Assembly (NCBI GenBank): GCA_963622735.1
Contig: CAVFIT010000027.1
Span: 1-51,411, forward strand
DNA: 51,411 bases
Direction of reading: 5' to 3'
Source of the DNA: Phocaeicola dorei
GTDB taxonomy: Bacteria; Bacillota_I; Bacilli_A; RFN20; CAG-288
Shown in pieces: positions 12,711 to 38,321 of this stretch. Each line of letters begins with the position of its first letter. Positions within the stretch are counted from its first letter, which is position 1. A model generated the notes under the pieces. The model was not told the DNA's origin. It did no database searches and saw nothing but the letters and a program-made list of their open reading frames with translations. Made by a program: the position numbers and the translations under genes.

Positions 12711-13589
12711 ATGCAATTTAGATTAATGTATCCAGGATTTAAGCCTAAAGCTTTTACTGTTAGTTATGATGATGGAATTATCCAAGATGTTAAATTAGTT
12801 GAAATATTGAATAAATATTCAATTAAGGGAACGTTTAATCTTAATAGTGGATTACAAGGACAAGAAAAGTTTAGAGATGGACTTTATCAAGATCATATTG
12901 ATTGTCATGTAATGAATTTTAAAGATTATCCTCATTTATATGATAATTTTGAAATTGCCTGTCATACTTATTCTCATCCTCATTTAGAAGATATTTCTTT
13001 TTCTAAACAAGAAGAAGAAATTAAAAAGAATATAGAATATTTAAATAAAGAATTTAATAGGAAAGTTCAAGGATTTGCATATCCTTATGGAACTTATAAT
13101 AAAGATAGTCTAGATGTATTAAATAAACTTGGTATTAAATACGCTAGAACAACTAAATCCACATATAGCTTTAATAGACCATATAATTTCTTATTATGGC
13201 ATCCTACTATTCATCATAGAGATCCTCATTTATTTGAGGTATTGGATAATTTCTTTCACAGTTATGATGAACTAGGAGTCTTCTATTTATGGGGACATGG
13301 TTATGAATTCGCCTTAGATGATAACTTTGATTTAATTGAAAGGGTTAGTAAAGTTATTTCTTCTCATAAGGAAGTGTTCTTAGCTACAAATTTAGAAATA
13401 TGTGATTATATTAAAGCAGCTGAGATGGTTTATTTTAGAAAGACGTCAAGTGGATATGATAATAATCAAGAAGAAGGTTATTTTTTTAATCCATCTTCTA
13501 TAGATGTTTATTTAATTACTCCTCAAGGCAAAAAACTAGTCGTGCATCCATTAGAAAGGTTACAATATCATGAACAAAAACAAATTTAA
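12711..13589 (+). CDS. Polysaccharide deacetylase (NodB homology / CE4-like), cytoplasmic
   Basis: NodB motifs FTVSYDDG and HTYSHPH; no signal peptide. Confidence 0.75.
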   Translation: MQFRLMYPGFKPKAFTVSYDDGIIQDVKLVEILNKYSIKGTFNLNSGLQGQEKFRDGLYQDHIDCHVMNFKDYPHLYDNFEIACHTYSHPHLEDISFSKQEEEIKKNIEYLNKEFNRKVQGFAYPYGTYNKDSLDVLNKLGIKYARTTKSTYSFNRPYNFLLWHPTIHHRDPHLFEVLDNFFHSYDELGVFYLWGHGYEFALDDNFDLIERVSKVISSHKEVFLATNLEICDYIKAAEMVYFRKTSSGYDNNQEEGYFFNPSSIDVYLITPQGKKLVVHPLERLQYHEQKQI

Positions 13590-14583
13590 TGACAAAATCG
13601 TATCACTTGGAGAAATTATGCTAAGATTAACTCCTCCTGATTACACAAGAATTGAACACGCTAATTCTTATTTAGCAAATTATGGAGGTGGGGAAGCTAA
13701 CGTTATTGTTTCTTTATCTCATTTAGGACATAATTGTCACTTTATTACTAGATTACCACCTAATCAATTAGGGGATGGAGCTGTTGAACACTTATTAGCC
13801 CATGGAGTAAAGACAGATTATATAGTAAGAGGTTCTTCTATTATGGGTATTTATTTCCTTGAATCAGGATTTGGTGGAAGACCAGGTAGAGTTATTTATA
13901 ATAGAAAACACTCCGCATTTACTAGAATTACTGCTAGTGAATTAGATTTAGATGAAATATTCCATGATGCTACATGGTTCCATATTTCTGGTATTACTTT
14001 AGCTTTAGGTGAAAAAGCAAGAAGTGTCGCTTTAGAATGTTTAAAGTATTGTAAAAAATACGGCGTTAAGGTTTCATTTGACTTTAACTATAGAGCAACA
14101 TTATGGTCAGTTGAAGATGCTAGAAAAGTCTATCCTTTAGTTATGCCTTATGTAAATGTTGTATTTGCCTCTCCATATGACTTTAGAGAAATATTACAAA
14201 TTGGACAAGATTTAAATGATGATGATTTAATGCGTTTAGCTATTAAAACCTATAATCTTGATTGGATCTTTGGTAAAACAAGAAAGATTTTCTCTTCTAC
14301 AGAAAATGCAATGAGAGCTTATGTATATTGTGCAAATGGTGGATATTATGCTACAGAAGAATATACATTCCAAATTTTTGATAGAATAGGGGCAGGGGAT
14401 GCTTTTGCTAGTGGAGTTATTCATGGTCTTATTTCTAGACCTAAAGATTCTAAGTTTGCAGCTAACTTTGGTATTATTAATTCAATTTTAAAGCAAACAA
14501 TATTTGGAGATGTTTCTACATTTGGTGAACAAGAAATCTTAGAATATATGGAAACACAAGGGAAAGCAGAGGTAAAAAGATAA
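13570..14583 (+). CDS. kdgK: 2-dehydro-3-deoxygluconokinase (PfkB family), copy 1
   Basis: SLGEIMLRL...YGGGEANV...DRIGAGDAFASG; paralog of 37188..38213. Confidence 0.8.
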   Translation: MNKNKFNDKIVSLGEIMLRLTPPDYTRIEHANSYLANYGGGEANVIVSLSHLGHNCHFITRLPPNQLGDGAVEHLLAHGVKTDYIVRGSSIMGIYFLESGFGGRPGRVIYNRKHSAFTRITASELDLDEIFHDATWFHISGITLALGEKARSVALECLKYCKKYGVKVSFDFNYRATLWSVEDARKVYPLVMPYVNVVFASPYDFREILQIGQDLNDDDLMRLAIKTYNLDWIFGKTRKIFSSTENAMRAYVYCANGGYYATEEYTFQIFDRIGAGDAFASGVIHGLISRPKDSKFAANFGIINSILKQTIFGDVSTFGEQEILEYMETQGKAEVKR

Positions 14584-14584
14584 A

Positions 14585-15259
14585 ATGAAAATTATTGGTA
14601 TTGGTGATTCTATAATGGCTTTTTACGATTCTAGTGAATATCCTCAAACTGGTTGGTTACAAATGCTAGATCGTTATATGATTGATCCTAAAAAAGTTAT
14701 TATCCATGATTATGCTTTAAAAGGACGTTCTACAAAATCATTTGTTGATGAAGGTCAATATAAATTAGCCTTAGATGATGTAAAAAAAGGCGATTATGTA
14801 TTTATTAGTTTTGGTCATAATGATGAAAAAGAATTTGATCCAAGTAGATATTGTCCTGCCTATGGTTCTTATCAAGAAAACTTAGCTATGTTTTATAAAG
14901 ATGTAGTATCTAAAGGTGCAACACCAGTATTTTTCTCGTCTGTTGAAAGAATGTTATATGATCAAAAAGGTGTATTAACTCATTCTCATGGTGATTATAT
15001 TAAAGCTATGGAAGATATCTGTAAAAAAATAGGTGCTATTTATATTGATTTAAATAAATTAACATATGATTTTTATAATAAACACACATTTGAAGGCAAT
15101 AGAAAATATATCATGACTTTATTACCTGGAGAATACGCAAATTTCCCAGATGGAAATAAAGACACAACTCATTTAACAGTTACTGGTGCTATGAATATTT
15201 GTAGACTATTAGTACCTGAGTTAAAGAAAATTAAAGGCTTAGATAAACTATTTAAATAA
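14585..15259 (+). CDS. SGNH/GDSL hydrolase, rhamnogalacturonan acetylesterase-like (CE12)
   Basis: Blocks GIGDSIM, GRSTKSF, GHNDE and DTTHLT; no signal peptide. Confidence 0.7.
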   Translation: MKIIGIGDSIMAFYDSSEYPQTGWLQMLDRYMIDPKKVIIHDYALKGRSTKSFVDEGQYKLALDDVKKGDYVFISFGHNDEKEFDPSRYCPAYGSYQENLAMFYKDVVSKGATPVFFSSVERMLYDQKGVLTHSHGDYIKAMEDICKKIGAIYIDLNKLTYDFYNKHTFEGNRKYIMTLLPGEYANFPDGNKDTTHLTVTGAMNICRLLVPELKKIKGLDKLFK

Positions 15260-15337
15260 TTTCTTGTGCTTAGTGCATAATAATTATTTTGTTATTTGTA
15301 ATATCATAAGTTAGTAGGAATAGAAAGAGAGAAAACT

Positions 15338-16501
15338 ATGGGATTAGAATTAAGAGATATAGTTAAAATTTATGATAATGGTTTCCAAGCTGTTACAGAT
15401 TTTAACCTTTCAATTAAAGACAAAGAATTCATAATTTTTGTTGGTCCTTCTGGATGTGGTAAATCAACAACATTAAGAATGATTGCTGGTCTTGAAACAA
15501 TTACAAAAGGTATATTTGATATTGATGGTAAAGTAGTAAATGATTTATCACCTAAAGATCGTGGTATCGCAATGGTCTTCCAATCATATGCTTTATACCC
15601 AAACTTAACAGTTTATGAAAATATGGCCTTTGGTCTTGAACTTGCTGGTTTTGATGAAGATGTTATTGAACAAAGAGTTAAAGAAGCCGCTGAAATTTTA
15701 AATTTAACAGCTTATTTAGATAGAAAGCCTAGAGCTTTATCTGGTGGTCAAAGACAAAGAGTCGCTTTAGGTAGAGCTATTATTAGACATGCTAAGATTT
15801 TCTTAATGGATGAACCTTTATCTAACCTTGATGCTAAATTAAGAGTTGAAATGCGTTCTGAATTAATTAAGATTCATAGACAAGTTGGTGCTACAACAAT
15901 CTATGTTACTCATGACCAAATCGAAGCTATGACAATGGCTGATAGAATCGTTGTTATGAACTTAGGTAGAATTCAACAAGTTGGTACACCTAAAGAATTA
16001 TATTTCCATCCTCAAAACTTATTCGTCGCAGGATTTATTGGTGACCCTCCAATGAATTTCATCAACGGACATTTAGATGGTAATAATTTTGTAAGTGATG
16101 ATGGTGTATTAACACTTGATATTTCTAACCAAGGTGAATATTACTTAAAATCATTAGAAGGTAAGAGATTAGTATTTGCTTATAGACCTGAACATGTTAA
16201 ATATGAAATAGGTACACCTAAAGCAGATTTCTATAAATTATCTGGTAAAGTCGAAGTTAGTGAAATGCTTGGTGATATTCAAAACGTTTATGTTAATATC
16301 GGTGCAGCTAAATCTGTATTAAAAGCAACTCCTAGCCAAACATTTGCAATTGATTCTAATGTTGAATATTATGTTGATAAACATGATGTTAGATTCTTTG
16401 ATGCTGACACAGAAAATGTTATCACAAATGAAGAATTAGAATATGGTAAAGCTGATTTAGGTAATCCAAAAGCTAAAAAAGTAGAAAAAATAGATAAATA
16501 A
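15338..16501 (+). CDS. Sugar-type ABC transporter ATP-binding protein (MsmK/UgpC/MalK-like), with no cognate permease adjacent
   Basis: Walker A GPSGCGKST, LSGGQRQR, Walker B FLMDEPLSNLD, and a MalK-type C-terminal domain. Confidence 0.9.
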   Translation: MGLELRDIVKIYDNGFQAVTDFNLSIKDKEFIIFVGPSGCGKSTTLRMIAGLETITKGIFDIDGKVVNDLSPKDRGIAMVFQSYALYPNLTVYENMAFGLELAGFDEDVIEQRVKEAAEILNLTAYLDRKPRALSGGQRQRVALGRAIIRHAKIFLMDEPLSNLDAKLRVEMRSELIKIHRQVGATTIYVTHDQIEAMTMADRIVVMNLGRIQQVGTPKELYFHPQNLFVAGFIGDPPMNFINGHLDGNNFVSDDGVLTLDISNQGEYYLKSLEGKRLVFAYRPEHVKYEIGTPKADFYKLSGKVEVSEMLGDIQNVYVNIGAAKSVLKATPSQTFAIDSNVEYYVDKHDVRFFDADTENVITNEELEYGKADLGNPKAKKVEKIDK

Positions 16502-16502
16502 T

Positions 16503-19055
16503 ATGTCAGGTGATATTACTTCAGTATCTAAAAAGGAATTAGATAGAAGAAACTTCATCCTGACAGGTAATATATGGAAAGTTGTTTTTACAATCAGCTT
16601 TCCTTTATTTTTATACTCGTTGTTTCAATATCTATATTCGTTTGTAGATGTTTTACTTGCTAACCAAATATCAAAAGAAGCTAGCGATTGTGTATCAATG
16701 ATTTCTCAATTTACTACCATGGTTCAATCTATTGGTGATGGATTAGCTGCAGGTGGTGCTATATTAATAGCTAGAGAAATAGGTAAAAATAATTATAAGA
16801 AAGCTCAAAGCTTATCAAGTACTTTATTTATTTATATTTTCGCAATTACTATATTAACTGATTTGATATTTATTCCTTTTGCTAAGCCTATTATGAGAAT
16901 GAATGGTTTAACAGAAGATTTAATTAATGTAGGGTATAATTACTTTATTATTAATATTGTTAATTCTTCAATTGTTATTGTTAATAGTGTATTTATTGGT
17001 TTACAAAAAGCTAAAGGATCTACTAAAAGTATTTCTTTATTTAACATAATGATTGTTCTTATTAAGATTGGCTTATCTTATTTATTTGTATATGGTCTTA
17101 ATCTTAAAGATACTACTTATATCGCTTTAGCTACATTATGTGCTAATTCTACATTGTTTATAATAATGTTATGTGGATATATGTTTAGAAAATCATATCT
17201 ATTCCACTTTTCGTTTAAAAATGTAGACTTCTCCTTTAAAACAGGCAAAAAAGTAACTCTTATATCATTTCCAATATTCTTAGGTAAGTTCGTATTTAGT
17301 TTTGGTAAAAGTATTATTAATACAATGACTGCTAATAAGTTTCCTAACCAAGGTGTAGTTGGTGCACTAGGTGTATCTAATTCAATAGGTGGAATGGGAA
17401 CTAAAGCTATGTCTAGTATTGAAGACTCAACTAGTAGTATTATTTCTCAAAACATCGGTAATGGTGATTATAAAAGAGCGTTACAAACTTTCTATGTAGG
17501 GTTAGTTTATAATGTGATTTTAGGAGTTGTTGCAGTTATTTTATTAACTGTATTTAATAATCAAATTGTTAGTTTTTATACTCAAAATATAACTGATGCA
17601 GCTAGTAGAGCTGAAAGAGAAGCAATGATTTCTGAAATTTTCTTTTATGAAAAGATGGGGATTATTACTTTAGGAATTAACTCAGCTGTACTTGGTTTAT
17701 TATACGGATTTGGCTATACAAAAATATCAATGGTTATTAATTTGTTAAGAGTATTTGGATTTAGAGTTCCATCATTAATTGCTATGTTTTATATATTTCC
17801 AAACTTTGGAATAGACTATGGTTGGAAAGCTGTAGGTATAGCGATGGGATTTTCAAATATAATGATTGGTATAGTAGCTATAATTGTTGCTATAATAATA
17901 GTAGTAAAAATTAAAAAACAAGAACAAAAAAGAAAGGAACTTCAAACTATGATTGATCAAACTAAAAAAGAGAAAGTAGAAAAGTTTATTAAAAACTATT
18001 TAAATGAATTTACTTTCTACAAAAAAGAAAAGAACATTAAATGGTGTTATGAAGATGGTATTGTATTAAATGGTGCAATGCAGCTTTATAAAACTACTAA
18101 AGATAAGTTCTACTTAGACTTTGTAGTAAATCATTTTGATCAATGTATTCAAGATGATGGTACAATTTTAACTTATTCCCCTGAAGAAAAGAACATTGAT
18201 AATGTAGAAGAAGGTATGTCTTTATTCTTACTTAATCAAATTAAGCATGAAGATAAATATGATAAAGCTTTAAAATTATTAGAATATCAATTAACAATCA
18301 TGCCTAGAACTAAATCAGGTTCTTTCTGGCATAAAGATATCTATCCAAATCAAATCTGGTTAGATGGTTTATATATGGGAATGCCATTTTATGCAAGTGT
18401 TACTTGTAGAGATCATTCTATTAAACAAAAAGATGATATTATTAACCAATTTAAAAATGTTGAAAAATATAATTATGAACCTAGCTTAAATTCATTTATG
18501 CATTGTTATGATGAGACAAAATCTATGCAATGGGCTAGTAAAGAAACTGGTAGATCTCCAAATGTTTGGTTAAGATCAGTAGGGTGGCTAGGTATGGCTA
18601 GTAGTGATGTTTATGAAATTTTTAAAGAAGGTGGATTTAGTTTATCTAAACGTTATTTAAAAGGTTTCTTACAAAAAGTCATCTCTACTATTGAACCATT
18701 AGAAGATAAAAAGACTCATTTATTCTATGATTTACCTTTATTACCTAATCAAGAAGGTAACTATTTAGAAACTAGTGGCTCTTTAATGATTGCATACGCT
18801 TATTTAAAAGGTGCTAGATTAAAGATGCTTGATTCTAGCGCAAGTAAAAAAGGTAGTGTCATTTTAGAAAGTGTTATTGATAACTATTTAACTGAAACAG
18901 AACTTAAAAACGTTTGTAAAGTATCTGGCCTTGATGGAAAGAAGAGAAATGGTAGTGTTGAATACTATCTTTCTGAAGAAGTTTGCTCTAACGATTCAAA
19001 AGGTGTTGCACCTTTAATGATGGCTTATAGTGAATATTTAAAGGCATGTAAGTAA
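16503..19055 (+). CDS. Fusion ORF: MATE-type 12-TM domain (aa 1 to about 470) plus unsaturated rhamnogalacturonyl/glucuronyl hydrolase domain (GH105/GH88 fold, aa 483-850)
   Basis: The N-terminal half is MATE-like. The C-terminal half has WCYEDGIVLNGA, IWLDGLYMGMPFYA, WLRSVGWLGMA and ETSGSLMIAYAYLKG. There is no stop between them in this sequence. Confidence 0.75.
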   Translation: MSGDITSVSKKELDRRNFILTGNIWKVVFTISFPLFLYSLFQYLYSFVDVLLANQISKEASDCVSMISQFTTMVQSIGDGLAAGGAILIAREIGKNNYKKAQSLSSTLFIYIFAITILTDLIFIPFAKPIMRMNGLTEDLINVGYNYFIINIVNSSIVIVNSVFIGLQKAKGSTKSISLFNIMIVLIKIGLSYLFVYGLNLKDTTYIALATLCANSTLFIIMLCGYMFRKSYLFHFSFKNVDFSFKTGKKVTLISFPIFLGKFVFSFGKSIINTMTANKFPNQGVVGALGVSNSIGGMGTKAMSSIEDSTSSIISQNIGNGDYKRALQTFYVGLVYNVILGVVAVILLTVFNNQIVSFYTQNITDAASRAEREAMISEIFFYEKMGIITLGINSAVLGLLYGFGYTKISMVINLLRVFGFRVPSLIAMFYIFPNFGIDYGWKAVGIAMGFSNIMIGIVAIIVAIIIVVKIKKQEQKRKELQTMIDQTKKEKVEKFIKNYLNEFTFYKKEKNIKWCYEDGIVLNGAMQLYKTTKDKFYLDFVVNHFDQCIQDDGTILTYSPEEKNIDNVEEGMSLFLLNQIKHEDKYDKALKLLEYQLTIMPRTKSGSFWHKDIYPNQIWLDGLYMGMPFYASVTCRDHSIKQKDDIINQFKNVEKYNYEPSLNSFMHCYDETKSMQWASKETGRSPNVWLRSVGWLGMASSDVYEIFKEGGFSLSKRYLKGFLQKVISTIEPLEDKKTHLFYDLPLLPNQEGNYLETSGSLMIAYAYLKGARLKMLDSSASKKGSVILESVIDNYLTETELKNVCKVSGLDGKKRNGSVEYYLSEEVCSNDSKGVAPLMMAYSEYLKACK

Positions 19056-19132
19056 AATAGTTAGTTGACTAACTAAATTTGGTGTATACTATTATTGTTA
19101 AGTAATTATAGAAAGGAAACAAAAAAATAATT

Positions 19133-20617
19133 ATGTCTGAACAATTACCTATCTTAAATTCTAAAATCCATGAAAAGAAGAAAGCTCCTATTAAAATTTT
19201 ACAATTTGGAGAAGGAAACTTCTTAAGAGCTTTTATTGACTGGATGATTCAACAATTAAACGATCGTACATCCTATAATGGACATGTATGTGTAGTTCAA
19301 CCTTTACCTGGTGGAAGAATTAAAGAATTAGCCGACCAAGATGGCTTATATACAGTTATCTTACAAGGTATTAATGAAGAAGGAAAAGCTGTTAAAACTC
19401 ATCAAGTTATCGATGTATTAGATGATTTTGTTAATCCTTATGCCGATTATGAAAAATATTTAAAATATGGTGAATCAAAGGATTTAGAAGTTATTATTTC
19501 TAATACTACAGAAGCTGGTATTTCTTTTGATGAAGCTGATTTAACTAATGATTTAGCTCATACTGCTCCTAGTTCTTATCCTGGTAAATTATATGCCTTA
19601 CTTGAAAGAAGATATCAAGTTTTAGGTAAAAAAGGTGAAATCGCTATTATGCCTTGTGAATTAATTGATGATAATGGTGATAAATTAAAAGAAGTCTTAT
19701 TAAAGATTGCTCATGGTAGAAAAGCCGATGCAGGTTTTGTTGATTTTATTGAACATTCTTGCCATTTCACATCTTCATTAGTTGATAGAATCGTTCCTGG
19801 TTTCCCTAGAGATGAATTCTCTTCATTATGTGAACAATATGGCTATGTTGATAACAACATGGTTAAAGGTGAATATTTTAATCTCTTAGTTTATAGAAAA
19901 GAAAGTTTCTGTGAAAAGGTCTTCCCATTACATCAAATCGGTGAACCTGTTCATTGTATCTATGTAGATGATGTTCATCCTTATAAACAAAGAAAAGTTA
20001 GATGCTTAAATGGTACTCATTCTTCTATGGTTCCTGTTAGCTATTTAGCAGGTATTAATGAAGTTAAAGAATCTTTAGAAGATGAAGTAATTGGAGAATT
20101 TGTCAAACATGAATTATTTGATGAAATTGTTCCTACAGTTAAAGTTAAAGATGTTGATCAATTTGCTAAAGATGTATTCAAACGTTTCTTAAATCCTTAT
20201 GTTCATCACTTATTAATGTCTATCGCTTTAAATTCTATTCCTAAGTTTAAAGAAAGAGACTTACCTACAATTATTGATTCTTATAATAAAAATGGTGTCT
20301 GGCCTAAACATTTAATGTTTGCTATGGCTAGCTTAATTAAATTCTACAAAGGTTATAGAATTGTTGATGGTAAAAAAGAAGAAATCAAATTAGCTGATTC
20401 AGCTGAAAACATCGCTTTCTTTAAAGGCGTTTGGGATAAATATGATGCTAGTAAAGATGTTAAAGCTTTAACTCATGAAGTTTTATCTAATACATCTTTA
20501 TGGGATCAAGATTTAACCAAATTAGCTGGTTTTGAAGATGTTATTTGTAAAGATTTAGAAATTGTTATTGCTGGTGAAGCTGATTTCAAAAATACTGTTA
20601 AAAATTTTATTAAGTAA
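19133..20617 (+). CDS. uxaB: Tagaturonate reductase (altronate oxidoreductase)
   Basis: ILQFGEGNFLRAFIDWMI N-terminus; mannitol dehydrogenase family length (494 aa). Confidence 0.85.
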   Translation: MSEQLPILNSKIHEKKKAPIKILQFGEGNFLRAFIDWMIQQLNDRTSYNGHVCVVQPLPGGRIKELADQDGLYTVILQGINEEGKAVKTHQVIDVLDDFVNPYADYEKYLKYGESKDLEVIISNTTEAGISFDEADLTNDLAHTAPSSYPGKLYALLERRYQVLGKKGEIAIMPCELIDDNGDKLKEVLLKIAHGRKADAGFVDFIEHSCHFTSSLVDRIVPGFPRDEFSSLCEQYGYVDNNMVKGEYFNLLVYRKESFCEKVFPLHQIGEPVHCIYVDDVHPYKQRKVRCLNGTHSSMVPVSYLAGINEVKESLEDEVIGEFVKHELFDEIVPTVKVKDVDQFAKDVFKRFLNPYVHHLLMSIALNSIPKFKERDLPTIIDSYNKNGVWPKHLMFAMASLIKFYKGYRIVDGKKEEIKLADSAENIAFFKGVWDKYDASKDVKALTHEVLSNTSLWDQDLTKLAGFEDVICKDLEIVIAGEADFKNTVKNFIK

Positions 20618-20622
20618 TTATT

Positions 20623-22092
20623 ATGAAAGACGTAATTTTAATTAATAAAAATGATGATGTTTATATCGCCCTTCACGATTTAAAAAAGGGCGATGTAATT
20701 GAAGAAGGTATCGTTTTAAACGAAGATATCAAGCAAGCTCATAAAATTGCTAGAACCGATCTTAAAAAAGGCCATAAAGTAGTTAAATATGGTGAAGTAA
20801 TTGGTCAACTTACTTGTGATGTAAAAAAAGGTAGTTGGATCCATTCTCATAATATGGTTACTACATTAAATGAGTCTCCTACCTATTCTTATAATAAATA
20901 TATTCCTGAAAATGAAAAAGCTAGTAAGAAAACATTTATGGGATATGTTAGAAAAGATGGTAGAGTTGGTATAAGAAATGATTTATATATTATTCCTACT
21001 GTAGGATGTGTTAATTCAATTATTTCTCAAATTAAATTAAAGTTTATTCTTAAACATCCAGAAATGGAACAAGCTGTTAAAATCGCTACACATCCTTATG
21101 GTTGTAGTCAACTTGGTGATGACTTTGATATTACTAGATTAATATTACAAGGTATTGCTTGTAATCCTAATGCTGGTGGTGTATTAGTTGTCGGTTTAGG
21201 TTGTGAAAATAACCGTTTAAAAGACTTTATGGATTCAATGCCAGCTCATGATAGTTCAAGAGTTATTTCTTATCAATCTCAAGATGTTACTAATGAAATT
21301 GAATATGGAGTTAGTCAACTTGAAAAGCTCTATGAAATTTGTAAACAAGATAAAAGAGTTGAATGTGGCTTAGATAAACTAGTCTTAGGCTTAAAATGTG
21401 GTGGTTCTGATGGTTTTTCAGGAATCACTGCTAACCCTTTACTTGGTAGAGTTTCTGAAATTGTTGGAGCTAGTGGTGGTAAAGTTTTACTTACTGAAGT
21501 TCCTGAAATGTTTGGGGCTGAACAATTATTAATGAATAGAGCTAAAGATGAGACTGAATTTAAAAAAGTCGTCGCTTTAATTGAAAATTTCAAAGCTTAT
21601 TATGCTAGAAATAATCAAGTTTGTTATGAAAATCCATCCCCTGGAAATAAAGATGGTGGAATTACTACATTAGAAGAAAAATCATTAGGCTGTATTCAAA
21701 AAGCTGGCCATATGGAAGTAGAAGATACTTTAGATTATGGTGATAGAGTAAAAGTTAATGGTTTATCTTTAGTAAATGGTCCTGGTAATGATATTGTTGC
21801 TGGTACTAATGTTGCTGCAAGTGGAGCTACTATTTTATGTTTTACAACTGGTAGAGGTACTCCATATGGATCAATTATTCCTACAGTTAAGATTGCTACA
21901 AATCATAAGTTAGCAAATTTCAAACCTGATTGGATTGATTTTGATTCTCAAGTAGTATTTGAAGAAGGCTTTGAAAAAGCTGCTGAACAATTATTAGACT
22001 ATATCTTAGATATTTGTTCAGGCAAGCCTACAAAAGCTGATATCAATGGTAATTTACAAATCGCTATATTTAAACAAGGTGTCACTTTATAA
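20623..22092 (+). CDS. uxaA: Altronate dehydratase
   Basis: N-terminal SAF-like domain plus UxaA core (GLGCEN, GGSDGFSGITANP); 489 aa. Confidence 0.85.
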   Translation: MKDVILINKNDDVYIALHDLKKGDVIEEGIVLNEDIKQAHKIARTDLKKGHKVVKYGEVIGQLTCDVKKGSWIHSHNMVTTLNESPTYSYNKYIPENEKASKKTFMGYVRKDGRVGIRNDLYIIPTVGCVNSIISQIKLKFILKHPEMEQAVKIATHPYGCSQLGDDFDITRLILQGIACNPNAGGVLVVGLGCENNRLKDFMDSMPAHDSSRVISYQSQDVTNEIEYGVSQLEKLYEICKQDKRVECGLDKLVLGLKCGGSDGFSGITANPLLGRVSEIVGASGGKVLLTEVPEMFGAEQLLMNRAKDETEFKKVVALIENFKAYYARNNQVCYENPSPGNKDGGITTLEEKSLGCIQKAGHMEVEDTLDYGDRVKVNGLSLVNGPGNDIVAGTNVAASGATILCFTTGRGTPYGSIIPTVKIATNHKLANFKPDWIDFDSQVVFEEGFEKAAEQLLDYILDICSGKPTKADINGNLQIAIFKQGVTL

Positions 22093-22110
22093 TTAAGGAG
22101 AAAAATAAAA

Positions 22111-23526
22111 ATGAGTGAATTTTTAGGTAAAGATTTCTTATTAGATAATGATGTTAGTAAGAAATTATATAATGAACATGCTGCAAAGATGCCAATTTTT
22201 GATTTCCATTGTCATCTTGTTCCAAAACAAATCTATGAAGATTACAAATTCAAAAACATCACTGAAGCTTGGTTAGGTGCTAACCACTATGGTGATCACT
22301 ATAAATGGAGATTACTTAGAGAATTTGGTGTACCTGAAGAATATATTACAGGTGATAAAGACGACAGAGAAAGATTTAATAAATTCGCTGAAGTCATGCC
22401 TTATATGGTAGGTAACCCAATTTATATTTGGACTCACTTTGAATTACAAAAATATTTTGGTATTACAAAACCTTTATCTCCTGCTACAGCTGATGAAATT
22501 TGGAATACATGTAATGAAAAGTTAAAAACATTAACAGCAAGAGAAATGATGTATTTAAATAACGTCGATACAGTTTATACAACTGATGATCCTGTTGATG
22601 ATTTACATTATCATGAATTAATGGCTAAAGATCCTACATTAAAGGTTCATGTTTTCCCAGCTTGGAGACCTGATAAAGCTTTAAATGTTGAAAGAGATAC
22701 ATTTATTCCTTGGATTAATCAATTAGAAAAAGTTTTAAATAGAAAACTTTCTTCTTTACAAGATTTATTAGATGGCTTAGATGAAAGATTAAAGTTCTTT
22801 GTTGATCATGGATGCTGTGCTACTGATCACGCCTTAGATATAGTTTGTTATAAAAAGGGAACTACATATGAACAAGCCAATGCAGTTTATTTAAAAGGTA
22901 TTAAAGGTGAAGTTATCACTGATGAAGATCAAGATATGTATAAAGGCTTTGTCATGGCTCATTTAGGTAGACAATACCATAAATATAACTTAGTACAAGA
23001 AATTCATATTGGTGCTTTAAGAAATAACTCTTCAAGAATGTATAGTAAACTTGGTGCTGATACTGGTTATGATGCAGTTTTAGATGCACCTGTTAGTGTT
23101 CGTTTATCTCAATTATTAGATGATTTAGATTCTACAAACGAATTACCTAAGACAATCTTATTTACATTAAATAGTTCAGATTATCCTGCATTAGTTAACT
23201 TAAAGAATTGCTTCCAAGGTGGAATGAAAGGTAAGATTCAACTTGGTACAGCATGGTGGTTTGAAGATCATATCTATGGTATGCAAAAACAAATCTCTTT
23301 CTTAAATAACGGTGGTTTATTATCTTGCTTTGTTGGTATGTTAACTGACTCTAGATCTTTCTTATCTTATCCTAGACATGATTTATTTAGAAGAATCTTA
23401 TGTGGATATTTAGGTGATTTAGTTGAAAAAGGTATGTATCCTTCTTCTAAAGAAGATATTGAATTCTTAGGAAAGATTGTTGAAGATATTTCTTATAACA
23501 ACGCTAAAGCCTATTTCAAAAGATAA
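22111..23526 (+). CDS. uxaC: Glucuronate (uronate) isomerase
   Basis: FLGKDFLL...MPIFDFHCHL N-terminus; 471 aa. Confidence 0.9.
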   Translation: MSEFLGKDFLLDNDVSKKLYNEHAAKMPIFDFHCHLVPKQIYEDYKFKNITEAWLGANHYGDHYKWRLLREFGVPEEYITGDKDDRERFNKFAEVMPYMVGNPIYIWTHFELQKYFGITKPLSPATADEIWNTCNEKLKTLTAREMMYLNNVDTVYTTDDPVDDLHYHELMAKDPTLKVHVFPAWRPDKALNVERDTFIPWINQLEKVLNRKLSSLQDLLDGLDERLKFFVDHGCCATDHALDIVCYKKGTTYEQANAVYLKGIKGEVITDEDQDMYKGFVMAHLGRQYHKYNLVQEIHIGALRNNSSRMYSKLGADTGYDAVLDAPVSVRLSQLLDDLDSTNELPKTILFTLNSSDYPALVNLKNCFQGGMKGKIQLGTAWWFEDHIYGMQKQISFLNNGGLLSCFVGMLTDSRSFLSYPRHDLFRRILCGYLGDLVEKGMYPSSKEDIEFLGKIVEDISYNNAKAYFKR

Positions 23527-23540
23527 TTAATTAAAAATTA

Positions 23541-23570
23541 AAATGACTTAGAATTAAATCTAGGTCATTT
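23541..23570. terminator. Bidirectional terminator between uxaC and the pectinesterase gene
   Basis: AAATGACTTAG / CTAGGTCATTT inverted repeat (one mismatch), flanked by A- and T-runs. Confidence 0.65.
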
Positions 23571-24505
23571 TATTTGTATTTTTTAATACATTCTTTATAA
23601 ATAGCAGGTATTTTATTTATTTGAGTAGACCATTCTACTCTATTTTTATTACTTGGATATTCTACAAAACGGGAAGTTAAATATCTTATAGATGATTTAT
23701 CCCAGTTATTAAAGCCTAATGAGTTAATATGATTACCATAATTACATTTAATAAATACTGATTTTCCAAAGTCTCTCCAAGGTCTACCTAGGTATACTCT
23801 TTGTTGAGGTATTGTTAAGGAAGTGAAATCACATTTATAAAACATAAATCCAAATTCATTTTTTAAGGAGTGGCCAGGAGCAGTAACATGAGATATAGAA
23901 TAAGACATATCTTCAATAGAGTCTATTTGACATTTATTAAAATATGCATCTCCTGCACCGAAGATAAAATCATTAGTACCTTGAATATAGCAGTTTTTAA
24001 AATATGTAAAACAGGTGCCTTGTTTATAACGTTCATCATCAGGTATAAAGTCTATATAACGTAAGACTAAATCATCAGGTAAAGGACCTATAAATAAAGT
24101 GTCTAGCATCGATTTAATTGTACATTTAATAAAATGATTGTTATTACCATATACACCTAGTGCGACTTGTTGTCCTTTTTTATATGGGTTAATTGAATCG
24201 TTAATTACAGTGATGTTTGTAAATGTGTTATTATCACCTGTAATTTTTAAACTAGCAGTTCTCCATGTGGAATTTTCTTTTCCATCCTCATTTTGCTGTC
24301 TAGCGTATTTACTACCGATTAATTTAACTTCTTTTATTCCGATAATATCAAAATTAGAGTAAGTAAATTTAATATTACCTTTAATAGTAGATGGTTTGAT
24401 TTTAATTGTATATCTGTTGGTTTTATCTACTTTTCTAATTTGTTTACAAATTGAATTTAGTTTAGATATATCTTCTATTGTATAAATGAATTTATTTTTG
24501 TTCAT
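23570..24505 (-). CDS. Pectinesterase (CE8), cytoplasmic
   Basis: QQVALGV, GTNDFIFG and YLGRPW motifs; no signal peptide. Confidence 0.85.
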   Translation of the reverse strand: MNKNKFIYTIEDISKLNSICKQIRKVDKTNRYTIKIKPSTIKGNIKFTYSNFDIIGIKEVKLIGSKYARQQNEDGKENSTWRTASLKITGDNNTFTNITVINDSINPYKKGQQVALGVYGNNNHFIKCTIKSMLDTLFIGPLPDDLVLRYIDFIPDDERYKQGTCFTYFKNCYIQGTNDFIFGAGDAYFNKCQIDSIEDMSYSISHVTAPGHSLKNEFGFMFYKCDFTSLTIPQQRVYLGRPWRDFGKSVFIKCNYGNHINSLGFNNWDKSSIRYLTSRFVEYPSNKNRVEWSTQINKIPAIYKECIKKYK

Positions 24506-24563
24506 AATTTTTATCTTTTTTATTTTATAATAATATTGTAAATAGTTAAAGGAAAATAGTTAT

Positions 24564-25397
24564 ATGAAATTTAAATATGGTATTAGAGGTCATGATTTAG
24601 TTACTAAATCTAATGTTGAAGAACTTGTAGTTCAATTAAAAAAGTATGAAATTGATTATATTCAATTAGTATTTCCTAAAACATTTGAAAATTATTCTTA
24701 TTCATTAGACTATGTTAATCATGTAAAAGATGTATTAGAATCTAACAATATTAAAATAGCGATGCTTGGAGCTTATTTTAATCCTGTTCATTCAGATGTT
24801 AATGTTGTCAATAAAGGAATTAGTAATTTTAAATCTAATTTAGATATTATGAATATATTAAATGCTAATTTTGTAGGTTCTGAAACAGGATCTTTTAATG
24901 ATTCACCTTGGATATATGTTCCTAAAAATAGAACTGAAGAAGGATATCAACAATCTAAAAAAGTATTTCAAGAATTAGTTGAATATGCTAAAAAAGTAAA
25001 TGGTAATGTAATTATTGAACCTGCTTTTGGTCATGTTATGTATTCTGTTAGTTGTTTAAAAAGATTAGTAGATGAATTAAATAGTCCTAATGTTTTTGTT
25101 ACTATTGATTTATATAATTTATTAGATGTGTCTAATTTTGATAAAAGAGATGAAATATTTTTAGACGCTATGAAGACATTTAATTCTAAAATTAAAATAA
25201 TTCATTTAAAAGATGGTGATATAGTAGATAATAAATTAGTTCAATTAGCACCTGGTAAAGGTAAGTTTAATTATCCTTATATGTTAGATCTTATAAGCAA
25301 GTATTGTCCTGATGCTACACTAGTATTTGAAGGGGTTAAAGTAGAAGATTTATCCTTTTCAAAAGAACATTTAAAAAATATAGAAAAAAATATTTAA
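24564..25397 (+). CDS. Sugar phosphate isomerase/epimerase (xylose isomerase-like TIM barrel)
   Basis: 277 aa with a general AP-endonuclease-2/TIM-barrel pattern (IHLKD, VFEG). Specific function not recognisable. Confidence 0.6.
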   Translation: MKFKYGIRGHDLVTKSNVEELVVQLKKYEIDYIQLVFPKTFENYSYSLDYVNHVKDVLESNNIKIAMLGAYFNPVHSDVNVVNKGISNFKSNLDIMNILNANFVGSETGSFNDSPWIYVPKNRTEEGYQQSKKVFQELVEYAKKVNGNVIIEPAFGHVMYSVSCLKRLVDELNSPNVFVTIDLYNLLDVSNFDKRDEIFLDAMKTFNSKIKIIHLKDGDIVDNKLVQLAPGKGKFNYPYMLDLISKYCPDATLVFEGVKVEDLSFSKEHLKNIEKNI

Positions 25398-25622: not shown

Positions 25623-26453
25623 GTGTCTAAACAGTCATTTAAAGCATTGGATCTATTAGTATTTTCATTATTAAGTGCGGGTAGTGAAGCTCTTATAATA
25701 TTCGGATTTAATAATATAGGAAAATATGATGGGTACATTGTTTCATTTACCGTAGTACTTAGTTTAATATCTATCTATCGTTGGAATGTACTTGGGATAA
25801 TTCCTGGAATAGTAGGTGGGGCAACATCAATTTGTATGTCTCTAACTAAAGATATTTCATTAGGATACATATTAGCTAACACACTCTCCTATTTTTTCTT
25901 ATTATTTGTTCTTATTTGGTTTAAGAAAAATGATAAAAAGAAAATGCTAAGTGATTCATTGAAGATGATAGGCTATTACCTAAGCGGATACTTGTTGTTC
26001 GAGATAGGTAAATGCATATGCTTTGTAGTTGGTACACCTAATGTGGCTAACTTAGGTAAAGTTCTTATTACTTATGTAGTATGGGATTTACTTAATATCT
26101 TAGTTGGTGGAGCAGTGTTCTATATAGCTTGTAAGCAAAAAACAATTGTTTACGATATGAATCAATATCTAATTGAGCAACATAGTGGAACGCCTACTTC
26201 AAGAATTAGAGATGATGTTAGCAATTATTCTAAATTAGAAGAAATGGCTGAAGCTGATGATGTAAGTGATATTGCATTATTAGATGGAGGTACTCTTTCA
26301 GAAAGTGATTTAAAACTTATGAATGAGACATTTAGAAAACAGACAGGAGCTTCTAATAGATATGTGGAAGAGCAAAAAGCTAAACAAGCATATCAAAAAC
26401 AAAAAGACTTAAAAAAGTCAGATAAGGAAAATGGAGGTCGACAAGATGATTAA
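25623..26453 (+). CDS. Uncharacterised membrane protein of about 6 TM with a roughly 90-aa charged/acidic C-terminal tail; first gene of the ABC operon
   Basis: GTG start (uncertain, RBS spacing poor); six hydrophobic segments; tail EEMAEADDVSDIALLDGGTLSESDL...KQKDLKKSDKENGG. Confidence 0.65.
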   Translation: MSKQSFKALDLLVFSLLSAGSEALIIFGFNNIGKYDGYIVSFTVVLSLISIYRWNVLGIIPGIVGGATSICMSLTKDISLGYILANTLSYFFLLFVLIWFKKNDKKKMLSDSLKMIGYYLSGYLLFEIGKCICFVVGTPNVANLGKVLITYVVWDLLNILVGGAVFYIACKQKTIVYDMNQYLIEQHSGTPTSRIRDDVSNYSKLEEMAEADDVSDIALLDGGTLSESDLKLMNETFRKQTGASNRYVEEQKAKQAYQKQKDLKKSDKENGGRQDD

Positions 26454-27453
26454 AGCAAGTGATGCAGAAATTGAAAATCTAGAGAGAACCTATTGGTCTA
26501 GAAAATGGAAGTCAATAGCAGGCGATTGGCGTTTATATGCAATGCTTGTGCCATTATTCTTCTTCCTTATTTGTTGGAAATATTCACCAATTGGAACAAT
26601 GATTATGTCATTTAAAAACTATAATCCTTCTGATCAGGCTTATGGTTCTAACTGGATCGGTGTTTATTGGTTTAGTGAATTGATGTTTGGTAGTATGTCT
26701 ACTGAATTCTGGAGAGCTTTTAGAAACACATTTACATTATCATTTTATGGTATGATATTTGGTTTCCCATTCCCAATCATTTTAGCCTTAATGTTCTCAG
26801 AAATTAAATGTACAGGTTATAGAGCAGTTGCTCAAGTCTTATGTTACTTACCTAAGTTTGTTTCAACAGTTGTTATTACTTCTTTAACAGTATTATTATT
26901 ACAACAACAAGTTAAAGATTCTTCTGGTAATGTATTACAACATCCAGGTCCTATTGCCCAAATCTTCGTTTCTATTACTGGTAATGAAAATTTAGCTATT
27001 ATGAGAGATCCAAGATGCTTTAGAGCAGTTTATCAAGTTACTGGTATTTGGGAAGCTGCTGGTTATGGTTCTATTGTTTACTTTGCTGCTATTTTAGGTA
27101 TTTCACCTACAAGTTATGAAGCTGCAAGAATCGATGGCGCTACAAAAGGTCAACAAGTTAGATATGTTACTTTACCTGGTATCACTTCAACATTAGTTAT
27201 TATGTTAATTCTTGAAATTGGTAAGTTATTAACTATTGGTTATGAAAAAGTTATCTTATTAGAAGGTACAACTCAAGACTTATACGAAACTGCTGAAACA
27301 ATTTCAACATATGTATGGCATTTACAACAAGGTTCTAGTGTTAATTTAGGTGCAGGTGCTGCTGCTGATATGTTTAACTCAGTTATTTCTATGTTACTTG
27401 TTATTGGTTCTAACCAAATTGCAAAGAAAGTCTCTAAGACTTCATTATATTAA
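26446..27453 (+). CDS. Sugar ABC transporter permease, LplB/YteP-like
   Basis: ORF-track 26431 trimmed to the ATG 8 nt after GGAGG; EAA loop YEAARIDGATKGQQVRYVTLP. Confidence 0.9.
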   Translation: MIKASDAEIENLERTYWSRKWKSIAGDWRLYAMLVPLFFFLICWKYSPIGTMIMSFKNYNPSDQAYGSNWIGVYWFSELMFGSMSTEFWRAFRNTFTLSFYGMIFGFPFPIILALMFSEIKCTGYRAVAQVLCYLPKFVSTVVITSLTVLLLQQQVKDSSGNVLQHPGPIAQIFVSITGNENLAIMRDPRCFRAVYQVTGIWEAAGYGSIVYFAAILGISPTSYEAARIDGATKGQQVRYVTLPGITSTLVIMLILEIGKLLTIGYEKVILLEGTTQDLYETAETISTYVWHLQQGSSVNLGAGAAADMFNSVISMLLVIGSNQIAKKVSKTSLY

Positions 27454-27474
27454 TAGAAAGGGAGGCTTAAATTT

Positions 27475-28422
27475 ATGCAAAATACAAACGCACAAGTAGA
27501 AGATAAGAAAAAATATAAAGCCAAGAAAGATGGCTTTGGAAGAATGACAGGAAGTGAAATCGGATTTAAGATATTTGCTTATGTCTTTGTTACAATCTTC
27601 GCATTAATTTGTTTATATCCTTTCGTATATGCTATCTCTGCTGCATTATCAGGAATTGATGCATTCGAAGGTGGTAGAGTTATTTTATGGCCAGTTGATG
27701 TTCAAGGTGAAGCATTCTTAGATGTTTTTAAAACAACAGGCTTCTGGTTAGCTTATACAAACACCTTATTCTTAACCTTATTTGGTACAATTTGGTGTAT
27801 GTTTATTGGTATCTTAGGTGGTTATGCATTATCTAAGAAAAGATTATTCGGTCATAAGTTCTTCAACTTCGCATTAGTTTTCACAATGTGGTTTACAGCT
27901 GGTATGATTCCTACATACTTAAACTTCAAGGGCACACAAGATGTTTTCAAAGCTGTAGGTATCATTGATGAAAAATGGATGGTTGTTATAGCTATGGGTA
28001 TGTCAGCTTATAACATTATCTTATTAAGAAATGCTTTCGAAAGTGTTCCAAAAGAAATTGAAGAAGCTGCTATTGTTGATGGTGCTAATGAATTCCAATT
28101 AGTTTCTAAAATTTATACACCAATGTCTAAAGCTACAATAGCTACAGTTGCATTATTCTTTGGTATCTCAAGATGGAATGGTTACTTCTGGGCAAAACAA
28201 ATGTTAACTACTACAGATGCTCCATTACAAGTCTTTATTAGATCAACACTTGATCAATATCAAACAGATACAGAAATTGCATCTTCTTGGTCTAAAATAT
28301 ATGCACCTAACTCATTTATCTATGCAATGATTGTTTGTGCTATTATTCCTATTATTATTATTTACCCATTTATTCAAAAATACTTTGCCGCAGGTGTTAA
28401 CCTTGGTGGTGTTAAAGAATAA
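27475..28422 (+). CDS. Sugar ABC transporter permease, LplC/YtcP-like
   Basis: EAA loop EEAAIVDGANEFQLVSKIYTP; 6 TM. Confidence 0.9.
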   Translation: MQNTNAQVEDKKKYKAKKDGFGRMTGSEIGFKIFAYVFVTIFALICLYPFVYAISAALSGIDAFEGGRVILWPVDVQGEAFLDVFKTTGFWLAYTNTLFLTLFGTIWCMFIGILGGYALSKKRLFGHKFFNFALVFTMWFTAGMIPTYLNFKGTQDVFKAVGIIDEKWMVVIAMGMSAYNIILLRNAFESVPKEIEEAAIVDGANEFQLVSKIYTPMSKATIATVALFFGISRWNGYFWAKQMLTTTDAPLQVFIRSTLDQYQTDTEIASSWSKIYAPNSFIYAMIVCAIIPIIIIYPFIQKYFAAGVNLGGVKE

Positions 28423-28502
28423 TTTATTAAATTTGATTTAAATCTATTTGACACTTAGATTTAAAATATAAAACTGCTTTATTGAAAGGAGATTAATTAA
28501 AA

Positions 28503-30758: not shown

Positions 30759-30766
30759 AAACTTAT

Positions 30767-30794
30767 GTTAGAAGGGAGAAATCTCCCTTCTAAC
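30767..30794 (+). terminator. Perfect 13-bp stem hairpin after the binding-protein gene (intra-operon attenuator / mRNA stabiliser)
   Basis: GTTAGAAGGGAGA (30767-30779) / TCTCCCTTCTAAC (30782-30794), followed by TTATATTT. Confidence 0.6.
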
Positions 30795-30826
30795 TTATAT
30801 TTAATAACAATAGAAAAGGAGAAGAT

Positions 30827-31453
30827 ATGGAAAACGTAACTAGCAATTCTTCACTTAAAGAAAATAAAATATTTAAAGATAGCCGCATTGCTAAAGTTCA
30901 AAAAATGATTTGGTGGGTAATGCTATTAGTGTTTGCTTTACTTTGTGTATATGCTTTAGTAATGTCTACACCTATTGCTAATTTAATGTTTGCTGATGAA
31001 GATGGTTTAGCAGATATGTTAAATTATATGAAACCATTAAATGATGCAATCATTTTATTAGGTATATTTGGTATATTATTTGCATTTGGATATAAACTTA
31101 CTAGATCTAATGTTAGAGGTAAATATTACATATCAAATTTTGTGTTCATGATTGCTCAATCAATTTACACATTAGTTGCAGGTGTTGTTTCCTTAATTAT
31201 TGTTATTAAATATCAATCTATGTACAATAATTTAAGATTTGAAGATATTAATGATGTTTTATATTTCACAAAGCCTGGTGTAGAAATGAAACCTAGTGAT
31301 ATTATTGGAATGGCTGCATTCGGTTATATCTTAGCAGTAGTTATTATATTAGTTACATTATTAAGTGTTTATGTTCTTGTTGGAAAATACTTAAAAGAAA
31401 AAAGTGAAGTTAAAAATATTGAAACTACAGCTGATGTAGAATTAGGAAAATAA
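30827..31453 (+). CDS. Uncharacterised 4-TM membrane protein (208 aa)
   Basis: AGGAG RBS; polar N-terminus, 2 TM, basic loop (KLTRSNVRGKYY), 2 TM, charged tail. Confidence 0.7.
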   Translation: MENVTSNSSLKENKIFKDSRIAKVQKMIWWVMLLVFALLCVYALVMSTPIANLMFADEDGLADMLNYMKPLNDAIILLGIFGILFAFGYKLTRSNVRGKYYISNFVFMIAQSIYTLVAGVVSLIIVIKYQSMYNNLRFEDINDVLYFTKPGVEMKPSDIIGMAAFGYILAVVIILVTLLSVYVLVGKYLKEKSEVKNIETTADVELGK

Positions 31454-31464
31454 GGAGATTACTT

Positions 31465-32058: not shown

Positions 32059-32061
32059 TAT

Positions 32062-33132: not shown

Positions 33133-33134
33133 TT

Positions 33135-33782: not shown

Positions 33783-33800
33783 ATTAGAAAAATTAAATAA

Positions 33801-35884: not shown

Positions 35885-35886
35885 TA

Positions 35887-36441: not shown

Positions 36442-36570
36442 TTTAATCCTAGAAATAGGTTAAATACATAAACAAAAACCCCAGTTTATGTTATAAAAAA
36501 GAAAGTGTGCATTTCTAATGGGTATTTTAAAAAGAAAATGCTATAAGCACAAATAGCTAGGAGGTTATAT

Positions 36571-38213: not shown

Positions 38214-38234
38214 TTAACTTTTTGATAAAAATAA

Positions 38235-38265
38235 AGATATGTTAGATTTCTAGCATATCTTTTTA
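38235..38265 (+). terminator. Rho-independent terminator
   Basis: AGATATG ... CATATCT followed by TTTT. Confidence 0.7.
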
Positions 38266-38284
38266 TAATTTATAATTATAAATA

Positions 38285-38293
38285 TGTTAAAAT
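38285..38293 (+). promoter_or_regulatory. Extended -10 promoter element (TGtTAAAAT) for kduI
   Basis: TG 38285-38286 and TAAAAT 38288-38293, about 30 nt upstream of ATG 38322. Confidence 0.5.
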
Positions 38294-38321
38294 ATATTAT
38301 ATAAGGAGATTATAAATAATC

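Follow-up and report, generated by a model that had tools for sequence, protein, structure and literature searches.

A long-standing MATE–GH105 gene fusion with a conserved candidate internal start site in a pectin locus of uncultured gut Bacilli

Domain architecture of the fused gene

The stretch of DNA analyzed here, referred to as the window, is 51,411 nucleotides long and covers positions 1-51,411 of contig CAVFIT010000027.1 of assembly GCA_963622735.1, listed as Phocaeicola dorei. Within a pectin/galacturonate locus, the window carries a single open reading frame (ORF) of 850 codons plus a TAA stop (16503..19055, + strand) in which a complete MATE transporter is joined to a complete hydrolase of the GH105 type. 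This fused gene, and in particular a ribosome-binding site and start codon that lie inside it at the boundary between the two domains, is the subject of this analysis. A first-pass annotation of the window had reported the ORF and its two domains, and an ORF check and Pfam searches recovered both.

The MATE domain (residues 1-468; 16503..17906, +) contains two MatE repeats (PF01554, E 6.5e-28, 97.9 bits against a cut-off of 24.9). With NCBIfam TIGR00797 matE the fused protein scored 114.5 bits, under the cut-off of 147.4, indicating that the domain is a divergent member of the family. An AlphaFold2 (AF2) model of the fused protein, based on 65 homologues (pLDDT 88.4, pTM 0.78), contains 12 transmembrane (TM) helices, and lysine and arginine residues number 31 on the predicted inside loops versus 9 on the outside loops. 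This bias places the C-terminal hydrolase domain in the cytoplasm (N-in/C-in topology), in agreement with the topology proposed in the first-pass annotation. Foldseek returned TM-scores of 0.88-0.90 to PfMATE (0.90 for 3wbn); the closest sequence relative is DinF-BH, and PfMATE was also matched. With these DinF-subfamily transporters (DinF-BH, 4lz6/5c6n; PfMATE, 3vvn/4mlb/6fhz) the fused domain shares the 12 TM helices, the two MatE repeats, a TM-score of ~0.9 (PfMATE) and the TM1 proline and aspartate, but only ~15-19% sequence identity. Unlike them, it lies in a sugar-acid catabolic operon and bears a C-terminal enzyme; this arrangement matches no known role in drug efflux.

Pro34 (16602-16604, +), aligned with P26 of PfMATE, and Asp49 in TM1 (16647..16649, +), aligned with D40 of DinF-BH and D41 of PfMATE, are invariant in 65 fused proteins. 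We take this aspartate to be the proton-coupling site of the MATE literature; structure 5c6n differs from 5c6o and 4lz6 only by N for D at the aligned position. The position of PfMATE D184 (TM5) is occupied by Ser. Four basic residues are characteristic of the subfamily, namely K188, K262, K269 and R421 in TM5, TM7 and TM11. They correspond to N, Q, M and L in DinF-BH, and the first three to N, Q and M in PfMATE, where R421 is unaligned. Among the 65 fused proteins K188, K269 and R421 are invariant and K262 is conserved in at least 90%. The codons for residues 44-48 of TM1 (~16632-16646), adjoining Asp49, form the second-highest window of synonymous conservation in the fused gene.

In the AF2 model, TM12 (residues 442-468) runs on as one continuous helix through a Lys/Glu-rich cytoplasmic linker (residues 469-482; TM12 and linker together 17826..17948, +) to residue 483, with mean pLDDT values of 89-94 for the 10-residue blocks across residues 441-490. 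The GH105 unsaturated uronyl hydrolase domain follows (residues 483-850; 17949..19052, +). Its residues 495-848 match positions 8-351 of the 352-position Pfam model Glyco_hydro_88 (PF07470), a family in which GH105 is included (E 3.3e-67), and in sequence the domain matches PDB 4wu0 (E 1e-72) and YteR (1nc5, E 8.6e-52). The predicted (alpha/alpha)6-barrel superimposes on 4wu0 with a TM-score of 0.91 (rmsd 2.4) and on 2gh4 and 1nc5 with 0.90. Asp621 of the WLDG motif (18363..18365, +) is aligned with YteR Asp143, the residue mutated in 2gh4 according to the title of that entry (YteR/D143N/dGalA-Rha). Together with His610, His667, Asp670 and Arg691, which are aligned with conserved YteR residues, it is invariant in the 65 fused proteins. 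Judged by residue conservation, the GH105 domain is predicted to be catalytically intact and to act on 4,5-unsaturated uronyl saccharides, with which the pectin operon is consistent. Given the invariant key residues and the structural matches, both domains look functional. The hydrolase resembles the unsaturated rhamnogalacturonyl hydrolases of family GH105, YteR and YesR of Bacillus subtilis and CA_C0359 of Clostridium acetobutylicum (PDB 1nc5, 2gh4, 4wu0) in sequence, fold, WLDG aspartate, cytoplasmic site and pectin-locus context. However, these are free soluble proteins of ~360-373 aa, whereas in the window a 12-TM transporter carries the hydrolase at its C-terminus.

At the junction, three A-runs encode the Lys-rich linker (17906-17910, 17913-17918 and 17926-17931, +; 5, 6 and 6 nt). 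They are followed by the Shine-Dalgarno (SD)-like sequence AGAAAGGAA (17931..17939, +), which is complementary to the 3' tail of 16S rRNA and occupies the position at which relatives carry a conserved AGGAGG. The AAAGGAA at 17933-17939 ends 9 nt before ATG 17949..17951 (+), an aligned spacing of ~8 nt; the ATG is in frame and encodes Met483. Conservation in relatives marks it as the ancestral hydrolase start, probably still used. The +1 frame has a TAA at 17905-17907, is open from 17908 and ends at a TGA (17950-17952) that overlaps the ATG as ATGA. All of the junction features listed in the first-pass annotation were found where it had placed them.

Upstream, an MsmX-like ABC ATPase gene (15338..16501, +) ends in a TAA one nucleotide 5' of the ATG of the fused gene (TAATATG), so that the two genes are probably translationally coupled. 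Both in the window and in its relatives the SD of the primary start of the fused gene is weak; in the relatives this start often overlaps the msmX stop, and the msmX-MATE adjacency is kept in all relatives and outgroups.

Age and history of the fusion

A search of 5.8 billion proteins returned recurrent fused orthologues, which the first-pass annotation had named as confirmation of a genuine fusion: 64 clusters of 834-893 aa with both PF01554 and PF07470, at 96-46% identity and 99-100% coverage. In the GTDB species genomes (~25) and metagenomes inspected, the two domains lie in one stop-to-stop ORF at every complete orthologous locus, and 43 such ORFs are complete in both domains. The GC content of the fused genes and their genomes ranges over 27-58%, and the sequences stem from many different studies and assemblers. 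The cluster of at least 90% identity to the window comprises 11 distinct sequences (NCBI, JGI, ENA, Logan), all of 850 aa. The A-runs have identical lengths in two independent Logan assemblies (93.8% nucleotide identity); in the relative L001 (82% nucleotide identity) they are interrupted, and the frame is still open across the junction. The 64 clusters, the 11 variants of equal length and the independent assemblies exclude both an assembly error and a recent origin, two of the readings that had been entertained for this junction.

When clustered at 50%, the fused family is reduced to one representative, consistent with a single origin. A second independent MATE-GH105 fusion was not found among the best 150 matches in 1.84 billion representatives, and the GH105 fusion thus appears to be of single origin rather than convergent. 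Some of the relatives are placed in the GTDB order RFN20. Taken together, these comparisons of sequences indicate a genuine fusion of long standing that selection has maintained in a clade of uncultured gut Bacilli. Full-text literature searches found no description of a GH105-MATE fusion. Databases annotate the architecture automatically, for example as 'rhamnogalacturonyl hydrolase YesR/Na+-driven multidrug efflux pump'. The gene is a novel combination of known parts, namely a MATE transporter, a GH105 hydrolase and an in-frame internal start.

Comparison of orthologous loci, from which separate genes with a shorter A-run might have emerged, gave one ORF at all complete fused loci and split genes at L160, L099 and L161. 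At L160, MATE and GH105 are two genes overlapping at ATGA with AAGAAAGGAAC upstream. The coupled two-gene state that the first-pass annotation had only imagined is therefore real in a relative (AAGAAAGGAACGATATGA). L099, from a different study, has the same junction, while at L161 the two genes overlap by 20 nt behind AAAGGAGAA. At L027 the same synteny occurs without the MATE part, and the GH105 gene begins at the homologous methionine behind TAGAAAGGAAAGATT; the 9-mer AGAAAGGAA also precedes this stand-alone gene. These hydrolase genes begin exactly at the junction site, which upholds the proposal that AAAGGAA and the ATG represent the native hydrolase start.

The neighboring genes of L027 are as close in identity to those of the window as are the neighbors of the fused gene L002. 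No MATE remnant was found in the L027 msmX-GH105 spacer by blastn-short or tblastx, only the shared AGAAAGGAA; in the absence of a scar, the choice between deletion and ancestral absence rests on the trees and the neighbor-gene identities. In the same spacer (L027 7800-8000), a hairpin, AGTTAAGC...GCTTAACT, and then a T-run lie just 5' of the SD, and the GH105 gene of L027 may begin a separate transcript there.

In more distant relatives the order is MsmX-MATE-GDSL-GH105-GH28, with MATE and GH105 as separate genes. In neighbor-joining (NJ) trees, which carry no support values, the fused clade is monophyletic and the split and MATE-less forms are nested inside it. The simplest history is that linked genes underwent one fusion that kept the internal start, followed by occasional fission or loss, both of which the retained start makes tolerable. 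The locus thereby offers an unusually clean evolutionary series of separate, overlapping, fused (with internal start) and re-split genes, and of a gene that has lost its upstream half.

The candidate internal ribosome-binding site and start codon

To count junction features we used 23 representatives sharing less than 80% identity. In the aligned junction DNA of almost all orthologues, (A/C)AGGAGG lies 5-8 nt 5' of an in-frame ATG. AGGAGG is perfect in 16 of the 23 representatives and matched at five of six positions in another 5 (21/23 in total). The spacing to the in-frame ATG is 5-8 nt in 18 of the 21 motif-bearing representatives, and such a motif is found at only 2.6% of the other in-frame ATG or GTG codons of the same genes. 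An ATG stands at or within two codons of Met483 in 22/23, the remaining representative having only TTG; outside the set of 23, L022 and L015 have GTG at the junction position.

The conservation extends to codon choice. The junction Glu codon is GAG in 20/20 sequences, compared with a fraction of at most 0.61 in the other 16 Glu columns and an overall GAG use of 41%, and AAG is used for the junction Lys in 15/17, a larger share than in any other of the 32 Lys columns. Directly after the Met, the two Glu columns are the most GAA-biased ones (0/17 and 3/18 for GAG). The motif is also kept when the encoded residues change: its first codon specifies Lys, Gln or Met and its third Glu, Gly, Ala, Asp or Val. 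The third codon begins with G in most sequences (exceptions being AAC in L007, CAG in L017 and AAA in L083/L084), and L013 encodes Trp-Arg (TGG AGG) yet retains GGAGG. In a sliding scan of synonymous conservation, the 5-codon window over the SD ranked first of 828 and the window directly after the start codon third; the pseudo-z of the former, 15.3 (mean 1.4, sd 2.7), overstates significance and is not a true probability, as the sequences are phylogenetically related.

At the junction Met, the SD duplex energy beats that of all or nearly all other ATGs of each gene, and the internal SD is stronger than that of the primary start. In the window, the duplex between AGAAAGGAA and the UCCUUUCU portion of the 16S tail has an energy of -10.3 kcal/mol, compared with a median of -7.2 for the ORF starts of the window, and an equally strong SD precedes only 0.7% of all ATGs in the window. 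Several real genes of the window carry a GAAAGGA-type SD at similar spacing. Because of this duplex energy and the shared SD type, an internal start is plausible in the genome of the window as well, although most relatives have a stronger one. The mRNA shows unusually little structure around the junction (mean z +1.25, positive in 22/23).

The title of PMC5100845 describes SD-like motifs as generally depleted inside genes, which makes a conserved strong one notable. The patterns of codon and motif conservation indicate that the junction SD and start codon are under nucleotide-level selection and are not a decaying relic. This selection is the main point that the first-pass annotation had missed.

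Further evidence was obtained from relatives in which AGG occurs at conserved Met columns of the fused gene (L019, L021, L023 and L026); metagenome copies with the same pattern are L092, L093, L101 and L102. AGG-to-Met recoding of such genomes has been described (PMC8629427). Each fused gene of the four recoded species contains 36-41 AGG codons, for the most part in Met or Leu columns, against just 4-10 ATGs. Two ATGs and no others are common to the four species, one at the gene start and one at the junction Met. Since elongator methionine largely became AGG and initiation needs AUG, retention of the junction ATG fits an initiation codon. ATGs left over in AGG-to-Met genomes are enriched for initiation codons, and may be a general marker by which internal starts are easily found.

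Among documented systems ArcB/ArcB-C comes closest; there, a conserved SD-like sequence and start codon at a domain boundary of a membrane protein release a diffusible C-terminal domain, a product shown by blot and Ribo-RET (bioRxiv 10.1101/520783). For MATE-GH105 the internal start is deduced from sequence conservation. It also differs from that of ArcB in having been inherited from a formerly separate gene, and in that re-split lineages and a lineage without the upstream part exist. Other in-frame internal starts of the same kind are those of CheA-L/S, ClpB, IF2 and SctQ.

An SD and a start codon kept by selection at a domain boundary make it most likely that the single ORF yields two products, and from these data we infer that the internal site initiates translation in vivo. 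Our preferred explanation, to which we assign a probability of roughly 0.7, is an old and selected MATE-GH105 fusion in a pectin operon that most likely gives a tethered MATE-GH105 and a free GH105. Ribosomes coupled from msmX at the weak primary start would produce a limited amount of a ~97-kDa, membrane-inserted MATE-GH105, in which TM12 and the short helical linker would hold the hydrolase at the cytoplasmic face of the membrane. Ribosomes loading at the stronger internal SD would produce additional free GH105 of ~43 kDa. Pectic oligosaccharides are probably imported by the ABC system of the locus; the hydrolase would then remove the 4,5-unsaturated uronate, and its products would feed the KduI and the UxaCBA/KdgK/aldolase pathways encoded nearby. 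In genome annotation, such ORFs should be treated as one gene with two likely products and not 'corrected' as frameshifts.

Several observations weigh against internal initiation. The linker is rich in Lys and Glu, so that A-rich, SD-like and unstructured sequence follows partly from amino-acid composition, and the low mRNA structure at the junction is confounded by the same A-rich codons. When each sequence was recoded synonymously, the fraction of recodings with an SD at least as strong ranged from 0.01 to 0.64; this null is too weak on its own in GC-rich genomes, and the control-column and sliding-window tests were used instead. The window and L001 carry the weaker AGAAAGGAA and not GGAGG. 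Two of the 23 representatives (the L083/L084 type) have the Met without an SD, and L010/L088 have an SD with only a TTG, 11 nt away. To these points are added the unsupported NJ trees and the relatedness of the sequences, which inflates the z-scores and binomial figures alike.

These points lend some weight to an alternative in which the fusion is real and the SD and ATG of the junction do not initiate, being kept as a Lys-Glu-Glu hinge or as an SD-like pause for insertion of TM12 ahead of the emergence of the soluble domain, so that only the 97-kDa protein is made. The amino acids of the linker are indeed conserved, Lys-Glu-Glu codons easily give AAGGAGGA, the recoding null is only weakly exceeded in GC-rich genomes, and the sequences without SD (L083/L084) or without ATG (L010/L088) would be accommodated. 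However, the signal at the codon level goes beyond the amino acids (GAG in all 20 sequences, top of the 828 synonymous windows), and the motif outlasts replacement of the residues by Gln, Met or Trp-Arg. A pause needs no start codon, and yet an ATG or GTG is conserved, with ATG in all four AGG-to-Met genomes. In addition, the same site is the start of the gene in L027, L160 and L161. We therefore consider this alternative unlikely, at about one chance in five.

Much less probable is a phase-variable locus that toggles between the fused and the two-gene state by A-run length, the slippage-switchable state suggested in the first-pass annotation. Both states do occur in the clade, with the split forms apparently nested among fused ones, and the +1-frame TGA that such a switch needs does overlap the ATG in the window. 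However, neither the A-runs nor the ATGA overlap is conserved, the 11 close variants all keep the frame, no variable long tract of the kind that defines contingency loci is present, and the split lineages represent not polymorphisms but fixed, divergent sequences (one and the same junction occurs in L160 and in L099, which come from different studies). Runs of 5-6 A are also short for efficient slipped-strand mispairing. We hold such switching to be very improbable. Programmed frameshifting at the junction was likewise considered and rejected: most relatives have ATGC or ATGT in place of the ATGA/+1 TGA overlap, and the A AAA AAG-like run of the window is unconserved and out of register for -1 slippage.

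Slightly less probable still is the view that the fusion is very recent and that the ribosome-binding site and ATG, both still recognizable in the window, are an undecayed relic of the two-gene state. Fused orthologues reach down to 46% identity across 27-58% GC with conserved synteny throughout the clade, and synonymous sites elsewhere in the gene are largely randomized. The distribution of the fused form over the clade refutes this reading; moreover, no other synonymous stretch of the gene is as conserved as the junction SD, which is not what a neutral relic would show. Finally, that the in-frame junction is a homopolymer assembly or sequencing error in what are really two coupled genes, as three A-runs of 5-6 within 45 nt of the junction, an ATGA-coupled pair on loss of one A and the existence of that arrangement in L160/L099 might suggest, has a negligible chance of being correct, given 850 aa in 11/11 close sequences from varied sources, identical A-runs in two assemblies, the same frame over the broken A-runs of L001 and fusion in 43/43 complete orthologues.

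Locus context and possible role of the MATE domain

The fused gene lies in a conserved operon context (12711..25397) of a CE4 deacetylase, KDG kinase, GDSL/CE12 esterase, MsmX, MATE-GH105, UxaB, UxaA, UxaC, CE8 (minus strand) and a TIM-barrel isomerase-like gene, found in the same order in L001-L028; the series CE4-KdgK-GDSL-MsmX-[MATE-GH105]-UxaB-UxaA-UxaC is kept in all relatives. The rest of the locus (26431..39158, +) encodes ABC permeases, a 751-aa lipoprotein, a second MsmX, GH28, a PucR-type regulator, KDPG aldolase, a second PfkB kinase and KduI. The CE4 (12711-13589), GDSL/CE12 (14585-15259) and CE8 (23570-24505, minus strand) enzymes have no signal peptide. The 751-aa ORF (28503-30758), just 3' of two ABC permease genes, has no Pfam match and carries the lipoprotein signal LAVTSC. 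Esterases without signal peptide and a lipoprotein signal suggest that the ABC system probably imports pectic oligomers in esterified form and that they are de-esterified inside the cell. With CE8, GH28 and Uxa genes, the locus looks more like one for the use of homogalacturonan than of rhamnogalacturonan I (RG-I); candidate substrates of the hydrolase are dGalA-GalA and dGalA-Rha.

Several conserved, small membrane-like ORFs without Pfam matches are also present in the locus (o276, o208, o197, o215 and o180; 25623-26453, 30827-32058 and 33135-34343), o276 being syntenic in relatives. Elsewhere in the window, two further MATE paralogues (3472-4875, -; 6902-8257, +), ~25% identical to the fused MATE domain, adjoin a MerR-type regulator gene (6099-6845) and look like ordinary efflux pumps.

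MATE transporters are efflux pumps for drugs, toxins and metabolites, and to our knowledge none has been tied to polysaccharide catabolism. Full-text literature searches linking MATE to rhamnogalacturonyl hydrolase or to altronate/pectin returned nothing relevant. Unfused homologues of the MATE domain (33-42% identity) recur in Uxa/hexuronate loci of other Bacillota. Members of the same subfamily are also fused to an alpha/beta-hydrolase esterase (BD-FAE/Abhydrolase_3) in P0097, P0098 and P0141. At the locus L164 (6001-8202, P0097) such an esterase fusion is followed by a second MATE gene, and the divergent neighbor is an MsmX-UxaB-UxaA-TIM operon; the domain junction of the fusion reads AAGAAAGGATATAAAGGT-ATG, with 9 nt between AAGAAAGGA and the ATG. 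A fusion of MATE to a CE8 pectinesterase (P0163, 811 aa; L165 1043-3478) occurs on a single 3.5-kb contig only and has no junction Met. It could be a one-off or an artefact. In another lineage, P0171 (707 aa) is a secreted GH105-CE8 fusion with an N-terminal signal peptide, in which pectin enzymes are fused to each other.

Residence in hexuronate loci, independent fusions to pectin enzymes and the Lys/Arg residues in TM5, TM7 and TM11 make an anionic pectin-derived solute, imported or exported, our best guess for the substrate of the MATE domain. Export of the GH105 product DKI as dead-end waste was also considered; it is weakened by the presence of KduI (38322-39158), KDPG aldolase and two PfkB kinases, with which DKI is probably catabolized.

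A more specific proposal, which we regard as speculative, with odds of about one in four, is that the domain is a dedicated transporter of anionic pectic oligosaccharides or uronates that passes its substrate straight on to enzymes attached at its cytoplasmic opening, and is not an exporter of drugs or by-products. It would then be the first carbohydrate-handling MATE. Such a role would explain why the three fusion partners (GH105, alpha/beta-hydrolase esterase and CE8) share a substrate class and not a product, why unfused members reside in Uxa operons of several Bacillota lineages and why the TM helices have acquired Lys/Arg. How much of the enzyme is tethered and how much is free would then be set by the conserved internal start. 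Two considerations speak against it: every characterized MATE that we know of is an exporter, which makes a role in uptake awkward, and an ABC importer is already encoded in the same locus. The oligogalacturonide and uronate importers of pectinolytic bacteria are TogMNAB (an ABC system), TogT, ExuT and KdgT. The fused MATE can be likened to them by genomic role only, as a transporter gene within a pectin/hexuronate locus beside Uxa, Kdu and Kdg enzymes; it belongs to the MOP superfamily, whereas they are ABC, GPH or MFS transporters.

A MATE subfamily fixed in the pectin/hexuronate operons of gut Bacillota hints at an unrecognized transport step in the use of dietary fiber by uncultured gut bacteria, and its repeated fusion to pectin-processing enzymes strengthens this hint.

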